Shown here piece by piece: positions 3,367 through 60,930 of a stretch of DNA of 64,000 bases (positions are counted from its first letter, which is position 1; every line of letters begins with the position of its first letter). The stretch covers positions 202,353 through 266,352 of the forward strand of contig OZ241916.1 of the NCBI GenBank assembly GCA_965203865.1. Direction: 5' to 3'. A program made the translations under genes and the position numbers. This DNA comes from Arenicellales bacterium (lineage in GTDB: Bacteria; Pseudomonadota; Gammaproteobacteria; Arenicellales; JAJDZL01). The notes below the pieces were generated by a model. It worked only from the letters and a program-made list of their open reading frames with translations, made no database searches and was not told where the DNA came from.

Positions 3367-3841
3367 CGTCTCGTTTCCAGTGCCCTGAGCGCCCCCCGGA
3401 TTTTTCCAGCAGGGATACCGACTGGATTTCCATACCGCGGTCCGAGGACTTGCACATGTCGTAGACTGTAAGCAACGCAATTTCCACTGCCGTCAATGCT
3501 TCCATTTCAACGCCGGTTTTGTCCATGGTCTCCACCGTTGCAACACAGCAGACGCAAGAATTGTCCTTGTCGCATGTCAAATCGACGTTTACATGTGTAA
3601 GGGCAATTGGATGACACAGCGGCACAAGCTCGGATGTGCGTTTCGCGGCCATAATGCCGGCAACCCGGGCAATTCCCAGGACATCGCCTTTTTTGCTTTG
3701 TCCCTGCATAATTGCCTCAAGGGTGGCAGGATTCATAGTGATACGGCCCTGGGCAATTGCCTGTCTGGCAGTTGCCTGCTTGTCACCCACGTTGACCATA
3801 TGGGCTTCTCCCTTATCATTGAAATGTGTAAATTCTGTCAT
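3359..3841 (-). CDS. moaC: cyclic pyranopterin monophosphate synthase MoaC
   Basis: [44 protein letters not shown] and MEALTAV are classic MoaC motifs. Confidence 0.9.
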
Positions 3842-3907
3842 GGCAGTAGAATACAATTCAGTCGTCTGCTGATTTTATCAATTGTTCAACATGATAAACT
3901 TTTGCTT

Positions 3908-4678
3908 ATGGATGATTCCATTTTATTGAGATACAACCGGCAAATTATGCTGCCCGCAGTCGGCATAGAAGGCCAGCAAAAAATCATGGATGCCCGAGTG
4001 TTGATTATAGGACTTGGCGGACTTGGTTCACCGGTTTCGATGTACTTGGCTGCAAGCGGAGTGGGCCACTTGCGCTTGAATGATTTTGACGACGTAGATC
4101 TTTCCAACCTGCAAAGACAAATCGTTCATACTACCAATGCAATTGACAGTCCCAAGGTTGATTCGGCAATTCAAACAATTCGGTCTTTGAACCCCGAAAT
4201 TGAATGCACAGGGGCCAGTGGACGATTGCAAGGAGAAGAATTGGTCACCGAAGTTCAAAACGCTGATGTGGTTGTGGACGCGACCGACAATTTTGACATA
4301 AGATTCGCATTGAATGAGGCATGTGTGAAGACAGGAACCCCGCTTGTGTCGGGTGCAGCCATACGTTTTGAAGGACAGGTAACTGTATTTCGTCCAGATA
4401 CGAACTCCGGCCCCTGTTTTCGGTGTCTGTTCAGTCCAGAAGACGAGCCGGATGAACGTTGCAGCGAAACGGGAATACTGGGTTCGGTTGCGGGTGTGAT
4501 CGGATGTGTTCAAGCGACAGAGGTTCTCAAGATTATTACAGGGGTAGGCGAAACTTTAATTGGTCGACTTCTTCTTTTTGATGCAATTCGCATGGAATGG
4601 CAAGAAATCATTGCATCAAGAGATAAAAACTGCCCGGTATGCGGCAATCGGAAGCAAAATAGCCGTGATGCGGGGTAG
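3908..4678 (+). CDS. moeB: molybdopterin-synthase adenylyltransferase MoeB (ThiF/E1-like)
   Basis: RYNRQIMLPAVG, GLGGLGSP nucleotide loop and CFRC plus CPVC zinc cysteines. ATG at 3908. The upstream part of the 361-aa ORF is antisense to moaC. Confidence 0.85.
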   Translation: MDDSILLRYNRQIMLPAVGIEGQQKIMDARVLIIGLGGLGSPVSMYLAASGVGHLRLNDFDDVDLSNLQRQIVHTTNAIDSPKVDSAIQTIRSLNPEIECTGASGRLQGEELVTEVQNADVVVDATDNFDIRFALNEACVKTGTPLVSGAAIRFEGQVTVFRPDTNSGPCFRCLFSPEDEPDERCSETGILGSVAGVIGCVQATEVLKIITGVGETLIGRLLLFDAIRMEWQEIIASRDKNCPVCGNRKQNSRDAG

Positions 4679-57386: not shown

Positions 57387-58082
57387 TTAGCCAGAATTTT
57401 CAATTTGCTTTAGAAACGGAATGGTTACGCGGCGGTGCTGCTCCAAAGTAGTGCTGTCAATCCGGTCCAGCAAGTTTAGCAATGTGTGCATATCTCTTGC
57501 ATATCTCTTCAAGGCGAAACGCGCCACCGGTTCGTCGATTTGAATACCGCGCCGCGAAGCGCGCTTCATTAGTATTTTGATCTTGTCATCATCGGAAACG
57601 CTACTGAGTTTGAAAATTTCCCTTGAATACAGTCTGCTCATCAGGTCTGGCAAATGAAATTCAATGGATTGGGGCGGCGCATTGGCAGTGAGTATTAATC
57701 TGGTATTTTGGACTTGGGTGATTTCAAACAATGCCATAATTTGCTTTTCCCAGGCCATGCTACCAGCTACGCGATGCACATCGTCAATACAGATTAAGGT
57801 AGTAGCATCCAGTTCGTCCAGGAACTGGGGTTCCAAGTCTGGACTACCCAAAGGGATGTAGTAACTATTTTCGACGTGCTTGCATGCAGAATAGAGCAAA
57901 TGCGTTTTCCCAACTCCTCTGGGCCCCCATATATAGGCTACTTTGCCGATTGACTCGCCATCCAGCATCCGGCGAATGAACTTTACAACATGATGGTTGT
58001 TCGACGAAAGGTAATTGTCGAATGTTGCATTATCAGTAATAACGACGGGCAGGATTCCTTGCCTGTTCATCGCTTTTCCCAT
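57387..58082 (-). CDS. hda: DnaA regulatory inactivator Hda
   Basis: AAA+ Walker A GPRGVGKTHLL and DnaA-like domain III length. The start is ambiguous (58082 or 58070). Confidence 0.8.
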   Translation of the reverse strand: MGKAMNRQGILPVVITDNATFDNYLSSNNHHVVKFIRRMLDGESIGKVAYIWGPRGVGKTHLLYSACKHVENSYYIPLGSPDLEPQFLDELDATTLICIDDVHRVAGSMAWEKQIMALFEITQVQNTRLILTANAPPQSIEFHLPDLMSRLYSREIFKLSSVSDDDKIKILMKRASRRGIQIDEPVARFALKRYARDMHTLLNLLDRIDSTTLEQHRRVTIPFLKQIENSG

Positions 58083-58089
58083 TCTTCGT

Positions 58090-58659
58090 TTAAGCAGATT
58101 TTTCTGGAGACTCTTTCGAGCTTGGCTTAATTGCCCAAACCCAGACATACTGTGCACCGCTTGCAATGGTTGTGATCACGACTGCATACAGAAGCACAAC
58201 ACTGGATCCGGGAATAAAGTTCCAGACCGAATTTTCCAATAACACAGATATCACAAGCGAAATCTGAAAAACAGTATTCAACTTGCTCATAATTGTGGGA
58301 AGCATTGGAATGTCTCCATCCAGATACATCAGCACCATGTAGCCTCCTACGATGATGATATCCCTGAATATGACAAGAGTAACTAGCCAAAATGGGATTA
58401 ATCCCAGCCAAACAAGCATGCAGTATGCTGAAATTATGATAATTTTGTCTGCCAGCGGATCCAGGTGAGCCCCTAGCTCGGATACAAAGTTGAACCGTTT
58501 TGCGATATACCCGTCAAGGCCATCTGTAATTCCTGCAAGTATGAATACAATCAATGCCAGTTCATAATTGTTGTCGCGTAACAGCAATATCAGTACTGGT
58601 GCCGCCAAGATTCGCAACAGGGTGAGCAGGTTTGGAATTTGGGATGCTATCGCGTACAT
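58090..58659 (-). CDS. pgsA: CDP-alcohol phosphatidyltransferase (PgsA-like)
   Basis: DGLDGYIAKRFNFVSELGAHLDPLADK is the CDP-alcohol phosphatidyltransferase signature. Confidence 0.8.
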   Translation of the reverse strand: MYAIASQIPNLLTLLRILAAPVLILLLRDNNYELALIVFILAGITDGLDGYIAKRFNFVSELGAHLDPLADKIIIISAYCMLVWLGLIPFWLVTLVIFRDIIIVGGYMVLMYLDGDIPMLPTIMSKLNTVFQISLVISVLLENSVWNFIPGSSVVLLYAVVITTIASGAQYVWVWAIKPSSKESPEKSA

Positions 58660-58933
58660 TGCATAGATATCAAGTCAAGAATTTCACAGTATAAAAGTAT
58701 ATGTTAGATTCAAGTTGCTGTTCGTGTACCTTGAATCAATTCAAAGCAATCTATTATAAAAAGTGTCTTCGTACACAAGTAGTTGACCTTGAAAAACTGT
58801 AATTTTTTTGAACGATGGTTTAATTCTCTTGAAGAAAGTGGAGGTCCAAGCAGTCAATCAAATGTGATGTACAATAGCATGAAAAAAAATTGTACGAAAC
58901 TCGAAAAGAACTTCATGGGTTGAATCCATTCAT

Positions 58934-60325
58934 ATGAAAGAAAAACTTTGTAAATTTGTGTTATCTGATATTCGTTGTTTTGAAGGAAAACAGGAATTTA
59001 ATTTGCGGCCTTTGACATTTCTTGTTGGCGAGAATAGCACCGGCAAGTCTACTTTATTGGGTTGTATTCAGATACTTGGTGATTTCTTAGGTTTTAATAA
59101 AATCTTAAGTACATACCATATGGAGAATCTTAACTTCAATCGTGCTCCATATGAAATGGGGGCGTTTGCTGACATTGTGAGAAAAGGAAACAGTAACTCC
59201 ACACAATCAAATAGTTTTCAACTTGGCTTTGAATTTCCGAACGGGAACGAGGAAAATTTGAAAATACTACTTCATATGCGCGAGCGAAAGAATGGTTCTG
59301 AACCTTTTATTAGTACTTTCAGAATAATTTTTCAGGATGTCGAGATTTACTGGAGAGCAGCGGCAAATCGAAAAATTACTCGCCCCAAAGTTGCTAGTAT
59401 GCAACCAAAGGGTAATCGTAAGGTTTTCAAAATTGAAGCATCGAATTGTGGTAGTTTTTTAAGATACTTAGAACTAGGAATATATATAGAAGATTTATCT
59501 CAAAGTGATTCTGACGATAAAAATGAAGACCGTACTGCACTAATAGATGTTCTTAAAAAGAAAGTTTTTAAGAATGAATCTAAAGGAAATTTGGAGCACA
59601 AAGATGGAGTTAGTCATGGAATAATTACCCCGCCACACCACAACTATGAATTCAAGAGTTTTGCACCAATTCGGTCTAAACCCCAGCGAACCTATGACCC
59701 TGTTGCGGAATTTCAAGACCACGAAGGAAATGAAATGGCCAACTTTTTGGTAAATTTGTACCGTTCATATCCTAAGAGGTGGAAAAAACTCAAATCTAGT
59801 TTGGAAGAATTCGGTAAATCTTCTGGATTGTTCAAAGAAATAAATGTGAGAACTTTAAGTGGGTTTGTTAGTGACCCGTTTCAAATACAGTTCAAAGTTC
59901 ACGATGAATCTATAGTCAATCTAATTGATATCGGCTATGGAGTAAGCCAAATTCTTCCGATACTAGTTCGAATTTTTGACAGAGAGACAAATCGCACATT
60001 CCTAATGCAGCAACCTGAGTTGCATCTCCATCCGAGAGCCCAAGCAGAATTTGTCTCTTTGCTTATAACATTGTACAAAGACGTATCTCTCTCATATATC
60101 ATTGAAACTCATAGTGACGCAATGATAAATAGAGCCAGAATTGAAATAATGAAGGGCAATTTATCTCCACAGGATGTTTCACTAATTTATTGTGAACCTA
60201 GTGAAAATGGTGTCAAGGTTCATAATATTGAATTTGACGACCAAGCCAACATGCTATCCGTGCCACAAGGTTTTCGTAACTTTTTTCTAAAAGAGTCAAA
60301 CCGACTTCTTGGAATGGAGGATTAA
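58934..60325 (+). CDS. AAA_15/AAA_21-type ATPase with DUF3696-like C-terminus
   Basis: Walker A VGENSTGKSTLLG, IRSKPQRTYDP, Walker B region LMQQPELHLHPRAQ and IIETHSD. Confidence 0.75.
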   Translation: MKEKLCKFVLSDIRCFEGKQEFNLRPLTFLVGENSTGKSTLLGCIQILGDFLGFNKILSTYHMENLNFNRAPYEMGAFADIVRKGNSNSTQSNSFQLGFEFPNGNEENLKILLHMRERKNGSEPFISTFRIIFQDVEIYWRAAANRKITRPKVASMQPKGNRKVFKIEASNCGSFLRYLELGIYIEDLSQSDSDDKNEDRTALIDVLKKKVFKNESKGNLEHKDGVSHGIITPPHHNYEFKSFAPIRSKPQRTYDPVAEFQDHEGNEMANFLVNLYRSYPKRWKKLKSSLEEFGKSSGLFKEINVRTLSGFVSDPFQIQFKVHDESIVNLIDIGYGVSQILPILVRIFDRETNRTFLMQQPELHLHPRAQAEFVSLLITLYKDVSLSYIIETHSDAMINRARIEIMKGNLSPQDVSLIYCEPSENGVKVHNIEFDDQANMLSVPQGFRNFFLKESNRLLGMED

Positions 60326-60328
60326 TCC

Positions 60329-60760
60329 ATGTGTGTCATCATTGATGTAAACATGTATGATGACTATCTCAGGAATAAACACCTAAAACCATTGAAAGAT
60401 TGGATAGAAAGTGGTTCGAGCAAGATAGCATATTCGTCATATGAAAAATTCGATAGAGAGCTAAGAAATCATTCCGAAATGCATACGCAAATTAATACTT
60501 ATCGTGAGATTGGATTACTAAAAGTTGTCAATAAAAAGGATGTTGCCAGTAAAGTAAGGGAATTGGAGAGTGTACAACTGAAATCAGATGACGCTCATAT
60601 ATTAGCACTAGCACTAGCAGGTAATATTCGATTGTTAACTACAAAAGATGGACGTTTACAACAGGATTTTAAAGAGTTGATAGGTAAGGGAAAACTTAAA
60701 GGCAAGGTATACCAATACAGTAATCATACTCACCTATTAACGCAAAACAGGTGTCCTTAA
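60329..60760 (+). CDS. small PIN-like domain protein
   Basis: VIIDVN at the N-terminus and SDDAHILALALAGNIRLLTTKDGRLQQDF, which resembles the PIN acidic-residue pattern. Starts 3 nt after the ATPase stop. Confidence 0.55.
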   Translation: MCVIIDVNMYDDYLRNKHLKPLKDWIESGSSKIAYSSYEKFDRELRNHSEMHTQINTYREIGLLKVVNKKDVASKVRELESVQLKSDDAHILALALAGNIRLLTTKDGRLQQDFKELIGKGKLKGKVYQYSNHTHLLTQNRCP

Positions 60761-60930
60761 TAACAAATGCAAACATAGTTGAAATTTTCATATATGTCTT
60801 GACACCTTATTTGAGAACTTTAGAAAGAATCTGCTTCCCATCGTAATTTAATATACATCACGAATACGGCATGCCTCATTGTTGCCTGCTGAATATAGTG
60901 AGCAATTGAAGGAAAAAAACAAGCTTGAAG

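Follow-up and report, generated by a model that had tools for sequence, protein, structure and literature searches.

Two co-oriented, AT-rich genes lie between the divergent operons hda-pgsA (minus strand) and purM-purN (plus strand) of an uncultured Arenicellales (Gammaproteobacteria) lineage, in the 64,000-nucleotide stretch of contig OZ241916.1 that was analysed here and is referred to as the window. The locus raises the question of what these genes, termed gene 1 and gene 2 below, do together and whether the pair belongs to a known kind of system. A preliminary description, made from the sequence alone, had taken them for a DUF3696-like AAA ATPase and a stand-alone PIN-like protein, and had regarded the pair as a small horizontally acquired insertion and a candidate defence module without a named counterpart. 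From the folds of both proteins, their linkage at other loci and the state of the junction in relatives, we propose, with a probability of about 0.68, that the cassette is a self-contained two-gene anti-phage abortive-infection module of HEC-03 architecture, horizontally acquired at the pgsA-purM junction in one Arenicellales lineage.

The two open reading frames (ORFs) and all the motifs earlier quoted for them (VGENSTGKSTLLG, IRSKPQRTYDP, LMQQPELHLHPRAQ and IIETHSD in gene 1; VIIDVN and SDDAHILALALAGNIRLLTTKDGRLQQDF in gene 2) were found where they had been placed, and the identity of the flanking operons was upheld by synteny and by the Pfam labels of a sister contig. The elements that define the cassette are:

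58934 to 60325, plus strand: gene 1, confirmed ORF of 463 amino acids
60329 to 60760, plus strand: gene 2, confirmed ORF of 143 amino acids
60316 to 60320, plus strand: Shine-Dalgarno sequence GGAGG for gene 2, within the final codons of gene 1 and 8 nucleotides ahead of the gene 2 start

The TAA stop codon of gene 1 occupies 60323-60325 and the ATG of gene 2 begins at 60329, which leaves a gap of 3 nucleotides, the junction reading GGA ATG GAG GAT TAA tcc ATG. The location of GGAGG inside the 3' end of gene 1 implies that the two genes are translationally coupled.

Folds and conserved residues of the two proteins

Taken alone, the gene 2 product gives only a partial, sub-threshold match to the Pfam PIN family (22.6 bits versus a cut-off of 23.6) and zero matches to PADLOC models at E<=1. 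A word-indexed search returned two relatives, falsely implying an orphan, and was corrected by an exhaustive profile search that gathered 1,063 cluster representatives at 50% identity, 265 of them at E<=1e-10. Nearly all members of this family are stand-alone proteins of about 140 residues that align end to end. M1, C2, D6, D88, D107, D113 and C142 never vary in an alignment of 80 sequences, 75 of which also have E44; judged from this conservation, D6, E44, D88, D107 and D113 are the canonical PIN acidic set. Pfam PIN (PF01850) matches 57 of the 80 relatives, the best at 3.9e-11. The predicted catalytic residues are encoded as follows:

60344 to 60346 (D6), 60458 to 60460 (E44), 60590 to 60592 (D88), 60647 to 60649 (D107) and 60665 to 60667 (D113), plus strand: predicted catalytic residues of gene 2

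The AlphaFold2 model of gene 2 (pLDDT, for predicted local distance difference test, 94.1; predicted template modelling score, pTM, 0.88) has an alternating beta/alpha topology with no extra domain. Its top Protein Data Bank (PDB) matches by Foldseek are PIN toxins of the VapC type, namely 5x3t_B (E 8.8e-4, probability 1.00), 3zvk, 3h87, 5h4g (template modelling score, TM, 0.60) and 1v96 (TM 0.63), and Utp24 is also among the structural matches. The gene 2 family profile found only spurious eL39 and ferritin matches among the PDB sequences, and a fold search of BFVD with gene 2 gave nothing significant. The assignment is thus based on the family profile and the structure model, not on the single-sequence Pfam match. 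The features of the PIN superfamily present in gene 2 are the alternating beta/alpha fold of the model and the acidic residues conserved in sequence. Hence the PIN-like fold that had been read from the letters is confirmed at the level of the model, and we predict that the domain is active in catalysis.

Cys2 (60332-60334) and the penultimate residue Cys142 (60752-60754) are each invariant in the 80 sequences, and the nearby His133 is present in 63 of them. This pattern of conservation suggests a disulfide or a metal site joining both termini of the protein.

Gene 1 is an ABC ATPase with intact P-loop and H-loop. It matches Pfam AAA_15 (6.8e-20) and AAA_21 (9.5e-17), and has more than 5,400 homologues at about 45% identity across the full length. 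The ranking in PADLOC-DB is headed by NsnB (2.7e-42, full length), followed by PDC-M55A (1.2e-38), HEC-03B (5.7e-26) and AriA (6.7e-21), so that the nearest profiled families are all defence ATPases. The AlphaFold2 model (pLDDT 80.7, pTM 0.84) adopts an ABC fold of the SMC/Rad50-head type with an ordered C-terminal tail; Foldseek retrieved Rad50 and SMC heads, plus PtuA in Septu and retron complexes, while the nearest solved structure by sequence is the class 2 OLD protein 6p74_A (3.9e-7). Pfam, PADLOC and the structure model therefore agree with the earlier view that gene 1 is the ABC/SMC-like type of ATPase known from Septu, PARIS, Gabija and OLD systems and carries no fused nuclease. The label "DUF3696-like" is sustained at the superfamily level, through homology to NsnB and HEC-03 and through distant plasmid homologues annotated as DUF3696; at the level of Pfam it is not, since DUF3696 matches neither gene 1 nor its 120 closest relatives. 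The parts of gene 1, with their conservation in 120 homologues where given, are:

59027 to 59053, plus strand: Walker A/P-loop GENSTGKST, residues 32-40; G32, N34, T36, G37, K38 and T40 invariant in 120 homologues
59390 to 59880, plus strand: hypervariable middle, about residues 153-315, the insert region of the ABC fold; low family conservation and low pLDDT
59999 to 60034, plus strand: Walker B FLMQQPELHLHP, residues 356-367; non-canonical, with Gln-Gln replacing the ABC Asp-Glu
60104 to 60118, plus strand: H-loop ETHSD, residues 391-395; E391, H393 and S394 invariant
60152 to 60322, plus strand: C-terminal tail, residues 407-463; beta-hairpin plus helix, highly conserved, pLDDT 92-96

Three motifs depart from the ABC pattern in the alignment of 120 homologues. 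The presumed place of the Q-loop is taken by SFAPIRSKPxRTY, the signature motif is GYG and not SGG, and at Walker B the residues Q359, Q360, P361 and E362 are invariant in 120/120, within the consensus FLMQQPExHLHP. Hydrolysis-dead E-to-Q mutants serve to trap SMC and ABC heads. The invariant Gln-Gln resembles these trap mutants and suggests a binding switch instead of a motor, while the invariant Glu of QQPE could be a substitute base for hydrolysis. The insert region is likely to be a candidate surface for sensing a trigger.

A paralogue of gene 1 (P0016, 473 residues, 48% identical) is located elsewhere on the same 3,147,672-bp contig, outside the window, and the genome may therefore carry a second system of this ATPase type. 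Scans with hidden Markov models (HMMs) found no second copy of gene 1 or gene 2 within the 64 kb of the window.

Linkage, surroundings and insertion of the gene pair

The linkage of the two families was found to be strict. A metagenome scan, with a 13-sequence subset of the gene 2 alignment as query, yielded 22 loci whose gene 2 relatives are 25-38% identical; using HMMs for both families, an ATPase of the gene 1 family was located directly upstream and on the same strand in 20/20 testable loci, the remaining two starting at a contig edge. The stop-to-start distance in homologous pairs is at most about 13 nucleotides, or the reading frames overlap. Sampling from the ATPase side (7 loci) gave an intact PIN gene in L002, L030, L053, L055 and L056, spaced 9-11 nucleotides from the ATPase gene in the last three and overlapping the ATPase stop in L030. 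No recurring third gene was seen at the homologous loci. ATPase and PIN protein are thus a conserved two-gene operon.

In two loci (L001:9345-9416 and L054:7346-7489) the PIN gene is cut to its first ~24 codons beside an intact ATPase gene; as the loci are independent, PIN loss of the same kind has happened at least twice. Among the loci surveyed a PIN gene lacking the ATPase was not seen, and an ATPase lacking the PIN gene does occur, which fits a toxic effector restrained by the ATPase.

The same asymmetry would be expected from a toxin-antitoxin or addiction module, in which the PIN protein would be the toxin and the ATPase its protein antitoxin or chaperone, the pair serving selfish persistence or locus stabilisation with no phage sensing. 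The PIN model is closest to VapC toxins and keeps the acidic catalytic set, the genes are coupled as tightly as in toxin-antitoxin operons, many loci lie in housekeeping neighbourhoods, and Pfam labels AAA_21 as a putative AbiEii/Type IV toxin-antitoxin domain. However, gene 2 resembles VapC at the fold level only (TM 0.5-0.63, 12-19% identity), and its upstream partner is a 463-residue ABC ATPase without a DNA-binding antitoxin domain, not a small DNA-binding VapB, for which the 3-nucleotide gap offers no small ORF; the same point has been made for HEC-03 (Payne et al. 2024). Moreover, the architecturally equivalent HEC-03 protects against phages, several homologous pairs are placed within restriction-modification (R-M) systems or adjoin Wadjet and Abi genes, and the hypervariable insert of the ATPase speaks more for a sensor than for an antitoxin. 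We regard a pure addiction module as unlikely, taking into account that toxin-antitoxin and abortive-infection roles are not mutually exclusive.

The proposal of a defence module gains from these surroundings, as several homologous pairs were found in Type III R-M systems, beside Wadjet or beside Abi/HEPN genes. In L030, L031 and L053 the pair is embedded in a Type III R-M system, with mod on one side and res on the other, and the pair of L055 adjoins Wadjet (JetB, JetC, JetD); other neighbouring genes match Type IIG R-M, HEC-01A, PD-Lambda-5 and Dsr1. The three Type III R-M loci look like hotspots of turnover for embedded defence genes. L030:3708-5004 contains fragments of a second ATPase of the gene 1 family (3708-4219) and mod only as a C-terminal piece; L031:3-2971 contains an additional distant ATPase ORF at 1490-2971; the locus of L053:524-10515 also has an Abi_alpha gene and an MNT-HEPN pair.

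Searches of plasmids and phages by tblastn gave nothing with gene 2 and only distant DUF3696-type matches with gene 1. Distant ATPase-PIN pairs are present on IMG/VR contigs: QQPE-type ATPases of these viral contigs are followed by a PIN gene in 6 of 7 cases, the seventh being at a contig edge, and five larger ATPases of the EQPE type have no PIN gene of the gene 2 family downstream. Across these contigs (L057-L068) the Walker B variant tracks the partner, the QQPE type (420-570 residues) occurring with the PIN gene and the EQPE type (530-580 residues) without it.

The cassette is a horizontally acquired insertion, as had been supposed from its composition and its setting. Both genes are missing at the junction in all 26 species-representative Arenicellales relatives (PgsA 59-80% identical), in every one of which purM and pgsA are divergent neighbours, spaced roughly 120-250 bp except in L007. 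The cassette occupies this locus only in three metagenomic contigs of the same narrow lineage (PgsA 98-99% identical where present): L002 carries the complete pair, L003 gene 2 preceded by the end of the ATPase gene, and L001 the intact ATPase gene and the remnant of gene 2, most of gene 2 and of the spacer between it and purM having been deleted. It is the presence in three near-identical lineages, set against 26 relatives without the cassette, that supports insertion; the pair is not conserved at the locus in all relatives. The composition is also foreign, the GC content being 0.363 in gene 1 and 0.345 in gene 2 versus 0.437 in pgsA, 0.458 in purM and 0.450 in the whole window.

The purM-pgsA spacer of L007 (5140-5992) is about 850 bp long, with an ordinary GC content of 0.43 and no ORF above 65 residues. 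An earlier insertion at this junction may have left it behind as a scar, or it may be a non-coding element.

The cassette has evolved fast. Flanking DNA is 95-99% identical between members of the lineage, whereas the middle of gene 1 (59390-59880) drops to 71-83% versus L001 and the 5' half of gene 2 to about 80% versus L002. Variable positions of gene 2 are concentrated in residues 1-85 (39 of 50), and the catalytic C-terminal half is nearly fixed. The pairwise ratio of non-synonymous to synonymous substitution (dN/dS) amounts to 0.55-0.78 in gene 2, compared with 0.18-0.30 in gene 1 and 0.03-0.21 in hda, pgsA and purM. Gene 2 and the flanks have similar dS values, which indicates rapid change of gene 2 in place. 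Gene 1 versus L001 has a dS of 0.40, where the flanking genes have 0.09-0.18; this two- to fourfold excess lies mainly mid-gene and suggests that the segment was replaced through recombination with a diverged allele and did not simply diverge in place.

These data bear on the alternative that the pair serves housekeeping or the stress response, in the metabolism of RNA or DNA and apart from genetic conflict; an SMC/RecF-like ATPase might, for instance, guide the PIN protein in repair or RNA turnover. Rad50 and SMC heads are among the structural neighbours of gene 1, PIN nucleases such as Utp24 also act in RNA processing, and several loci are flanked by housekeeping genes. Such a role would nevertheless be difficult to reconcile with a patchy distribution in which 26 related species have no pair and close relatives have lost the PIN gene, with foreign composition, with fast and mosaic evolution, with copies on viral/prophage contigs and inside R-M systems, or with the fact that the nearest profiled families are all defence ATPases; we give it a small probability.

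Relation to HEC-03, Menshen and other defence systems

The closest parallel to the proposed module is HEC-03 (Hma-embedded candidate 03, included in PADLOC-DB), which is anti-phage in E. coli with both genes required. It derives from Pseudomonas cichorii and consists of a gene for a DUF3696 protein (322707-324092, implying about 461 residues) and a gene for a 157-residue VapC-like PIN protein that overlaps the ATPase gene by 14 nucleotides (Payne et al. 2024, bioRxiv 10.1101/2024.01.29.577857). Both systems consist of two adjacent co-oriented genes with no further required gene, an ABC ATPase of about 460 residues being followed, in the same order, by an abutting or overlapping stand-alone PIN protein of about 140-160 residues. 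Their ATPases share the P-loop, an R-rich substitute for the Q-loop, GxG, xQPExHLHP and (E/T)HS(E/D), the HEC-03 protein reading by eye REPPKRDY, GFG and EQPE. The HEC-03 PIN protein also has a C-P-A-H-G-C terminus, to be compared with the terminal cysteine of gene 2, and homologous pairs are likewise embedded inside other defence systems.

The homology to HEC-03 is distant. PDLC04148 (HEC-03B) matches gene 1 at 5.7e-26 over residues 21-447, third after NsnB and PDC-M55A, and BLASTP aligns gene 1 to the tested HEC-03 ATPase with 28% identity over the C-terminal 174 residues (E 3e-18), giving no alignment of the N-terminal halves. Gene 2 has no match to the HEC-03 PIN model PDLC04147, which is matched by a single one of its 80 relatives (6e-4); aligned with hhalign, the gene 2 PIN family and the HEC-03 PIN protein reach a probability of 69.5% over 42 columns. 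The Walker B is QQ in the gene 1 family and EQ in HEC-03, and the first catalytic residue, Asp in gene 2, is apparently Glu (VVETN) in the HEC-03 PIN protein as read by eye, unaligned.

Menshen, or NsnABC (Millman et al. 2022; Li et al. NAR 2025, PMC12065111), supplies the best profile for gene 1. NsnB, an ABC ATPase, ends in a DUF3696 tail, and AlphaFold 3 predicts that two such tails clamp the N-terminal PIN-like domain of NsnC between them; the D-E-D-D residues are gone from this domain, which precedes a separate C-terminal nuclease in the same protein, and NsnA (ParB-DUF262) is always present (PMC12065111). NsnB departs from the ABC consensus in Walker B (EN), Q-loop (R) and signature (GxG) (PMC12065111), and gene 1 departs analogously at the same three motifs and is followed by a partner of PIN type, as is the N-terminal domain of NsnC. 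By analogy, the conserved tail of gene 1 would occupy the place of the DUF3696 tail predicted to dock the PIN-like domain in Menshen. The differences are that Walker B is QQ in gene 1 versus EN in NsnB, that Pfam DUF3696 has no match to the gene 1 tail, and that gene 2 is a single-domain PIN protein with catalytic residues whereas NsnC is an inactive PIN domain plus a nuclease.

This resemblance admits the reading of a decayed Menshen, a non-functional remnant in which nsnA had been lost and nsnC truncated to its PIN-like domain. The full-length match of gene 1 to NsnB, the PIN-like beginning of NsnC and the cases of domain loss noted in the Menshen study (PMC12065111) would agree with it. It is most improbable and largely refuted, as over 30 independent loci keep the two-gene form and no DUF262/NsnA turned up in those scanned or labelled for it, the 1,063 PIN representatives are nearly all stand-alone and of about 140 residues, the D-E-D-D set lacking from all NsnC inactive PIN domains is retained, no member of the gene 2 family matches an NsnC model, and both genes are under purifying selection (dN/dS <1). 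NsnA/DUF262 was looked for in the window and in L001-L052, both by phmmer, for which two DUF262 probes served, and by the motif DGQQR, and was not found; the precomputed Pfam labels of L053-L056 contain no DUF262, and L057-L068 lie outside the scan. As Menshen loci were themselves gathered via DUF262 neighbourhoods (PMC12065111), NsnA-less pairs would have been missed.

PARIS (AriA-AriB) and Septu (PtuA-PtuB) share with the pair an ABC ATPase of the AAA_15/AAA_21 type and a separate nuclease effector, and AriA and PtuA match gene 1 in profile and in structure. An ATPase oligomer that sequesters or regulates the nuclease is likely the same logic. The profile matches of gene 1 are weak (AriA 6.7e-21, PtuA ~1e-10, GajA 4e-9, Old 5e-11), Walker B differs, and the effectors are Toprim/DUF4435 (AriB) or HNH (PtuB) and not PIN; no Toprim or HNH match was found in gene 2, so the pair lacks the nuclease of PARIS, Septu, Gabija or OLD.

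Two PADLOC candidates were tried as identities and rejected. PDC-M55 comprises three genes, and the match of its A model to gene 1 is mostly confined to the C-terminal half; PDC-M11A was matched weakly by 9 of 80 gene 2 relatives, the best at 1.9e-5.

Strict membership of the gene 1-gene 2 pair therefore fails for both HEC-03 and Menshen, and its working logic is most like that of HEC-03. The earlier view that an ATPase with a free PIN protein could be assigned to no named system is too broad, as HEC-03 pairs them and, in Menshen, docking of the PIN-like domain of NsnC by NsnB has been predicted; it holds for this particular family, which the PADLOC models do not capture (no match for gene 2, 28% ATPase identity, no NsnA). 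The family is best placed among HEC-03-like systems, as a widespread and so far unprofiled member whose ATPase is NsnB-like; it opens no new system category and contradicts nothing in current understanding.

The data show the folds, the conserved catalytic residues, the strict linkage, the insertion and the fast evolution. HEC-03 and the genomic context of homologous pairs point to a defence role, and the Menshen models to docking through the tail; RNA as the target of the PIN protein and restraint by the ATPase as the direction of regulation are likewise inferred. In the model, the NsnB-like ATPase would oligomerise and its conserved C-terminal tail would hold the PIN protein inactive. The variable insert region would sense a phage-derived cue. 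ATP binding, possibly with slow hydrolysis given the Gln-Gln Walker B, would then switch the complex, releasing or activating the PIN nuclease, which would cut tRNA, rRNA or mRNA in the manner of VapC and halt the infected cell.

Several observations weigh against this proposal. With no PADLOC match for gene 2 and 28% ATPase identity, it is the shared architecture, and not orthology, that carries the function over from HEC-03. With its Gln-Gln Walker B, the ATPase might not hydrolyse ATP at all, which makes a motor or switch role uncertain. PIN loss in L001 and L054 shows that the module is dispensable, and the dN/dS of gene 2, elevated and below 1, could reflect relaxed and not diversifying selection. 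About half of the sampled neighbourhoods consist of housekeeping genes, as in the window, and neither plasmids nor sequenced phages yielded a close member of the family.

With the proposed module, one ATPase superfamily would display a series: HEC-03 (EQ, active PIN), the present family (QQ, active PIN) and Menshen (EN, inactive PIN with an added nuclease and NsnA). From it one could learn how ABC ATPases restrain and release nucleases, and whether ATP hydrolysis is needed at all. We tentatively suggest, as a possibility to be held with considerable doubt, that the family of QQPE ATPases with an active PIN protein is the evolutionary link between HEC-03 and Menshen. The PIN protein would be both tail-docking piece and effector, the inactive PIN domain of NsnC would have descended from such a partner after nuclease fusion, and the QQ Walker B would be a natural EQ-trapped switch in which ATP level or occupancy gates nuclease release. 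The family comprises at least 1,063 PIN representatives, each apparently tied to its own ATPase, and is invisible to the PADLOC models tried; it has no PADLOC model for the PIN protein, and Pfam gives most members no confident call. Added profiles would raise the counts of defence systems in environmental genomes.

Sequences flanking the cassette

The long AT-rich non-coding flanks that had been attributed to the cassette are present on both sides:

58660 to 58933, unstranded: AT-rich intergenic region between pgsA and gene 1, GC 0.32-0.33; presumed site of the cassette promoter
60761 to 60924, unstranded: AT-rich intergenic region between gene 2 and purM, GC about 0.34

A sigma-70-like match occurs at 58683-58710 (plus strand), upstream of gene 1, in a promoter scan that was not above chance (6 sites versus 8.7 expected after shuffling). 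No intrinsic terminator was detected in the scan between gene 2 and purM.

No meaningful alignment was obtained between the intergenic flanks and the empty sites of the relatives, and the exact end-points of the insertion therefore cannot be set. A search for target-site duplications or terminal repeats at the cassette borders gave nothing beyond one imperfect 28-nucleotide direct repeat. This A-rich sequence (71% identical, ending AAAAAAA) brackets the cassette, at 58861-58888 before gene 1 and at 60892-60919 before purM. It could be a piece of the purM leader duplicated at insertion; being short and of low complexity, it is probably due to chance.

Beyond the upstream flank, the hda ORF (57387-58166, minus strand, TTG start, 259 residues) overlaps the 3' end of pgsA (58090-58659, minus strand) by 77 nucleotides. 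The Hda call of the sister contig is 227 residues long, without overlap with pgsA, so the true start of hda is probably located further downstream.

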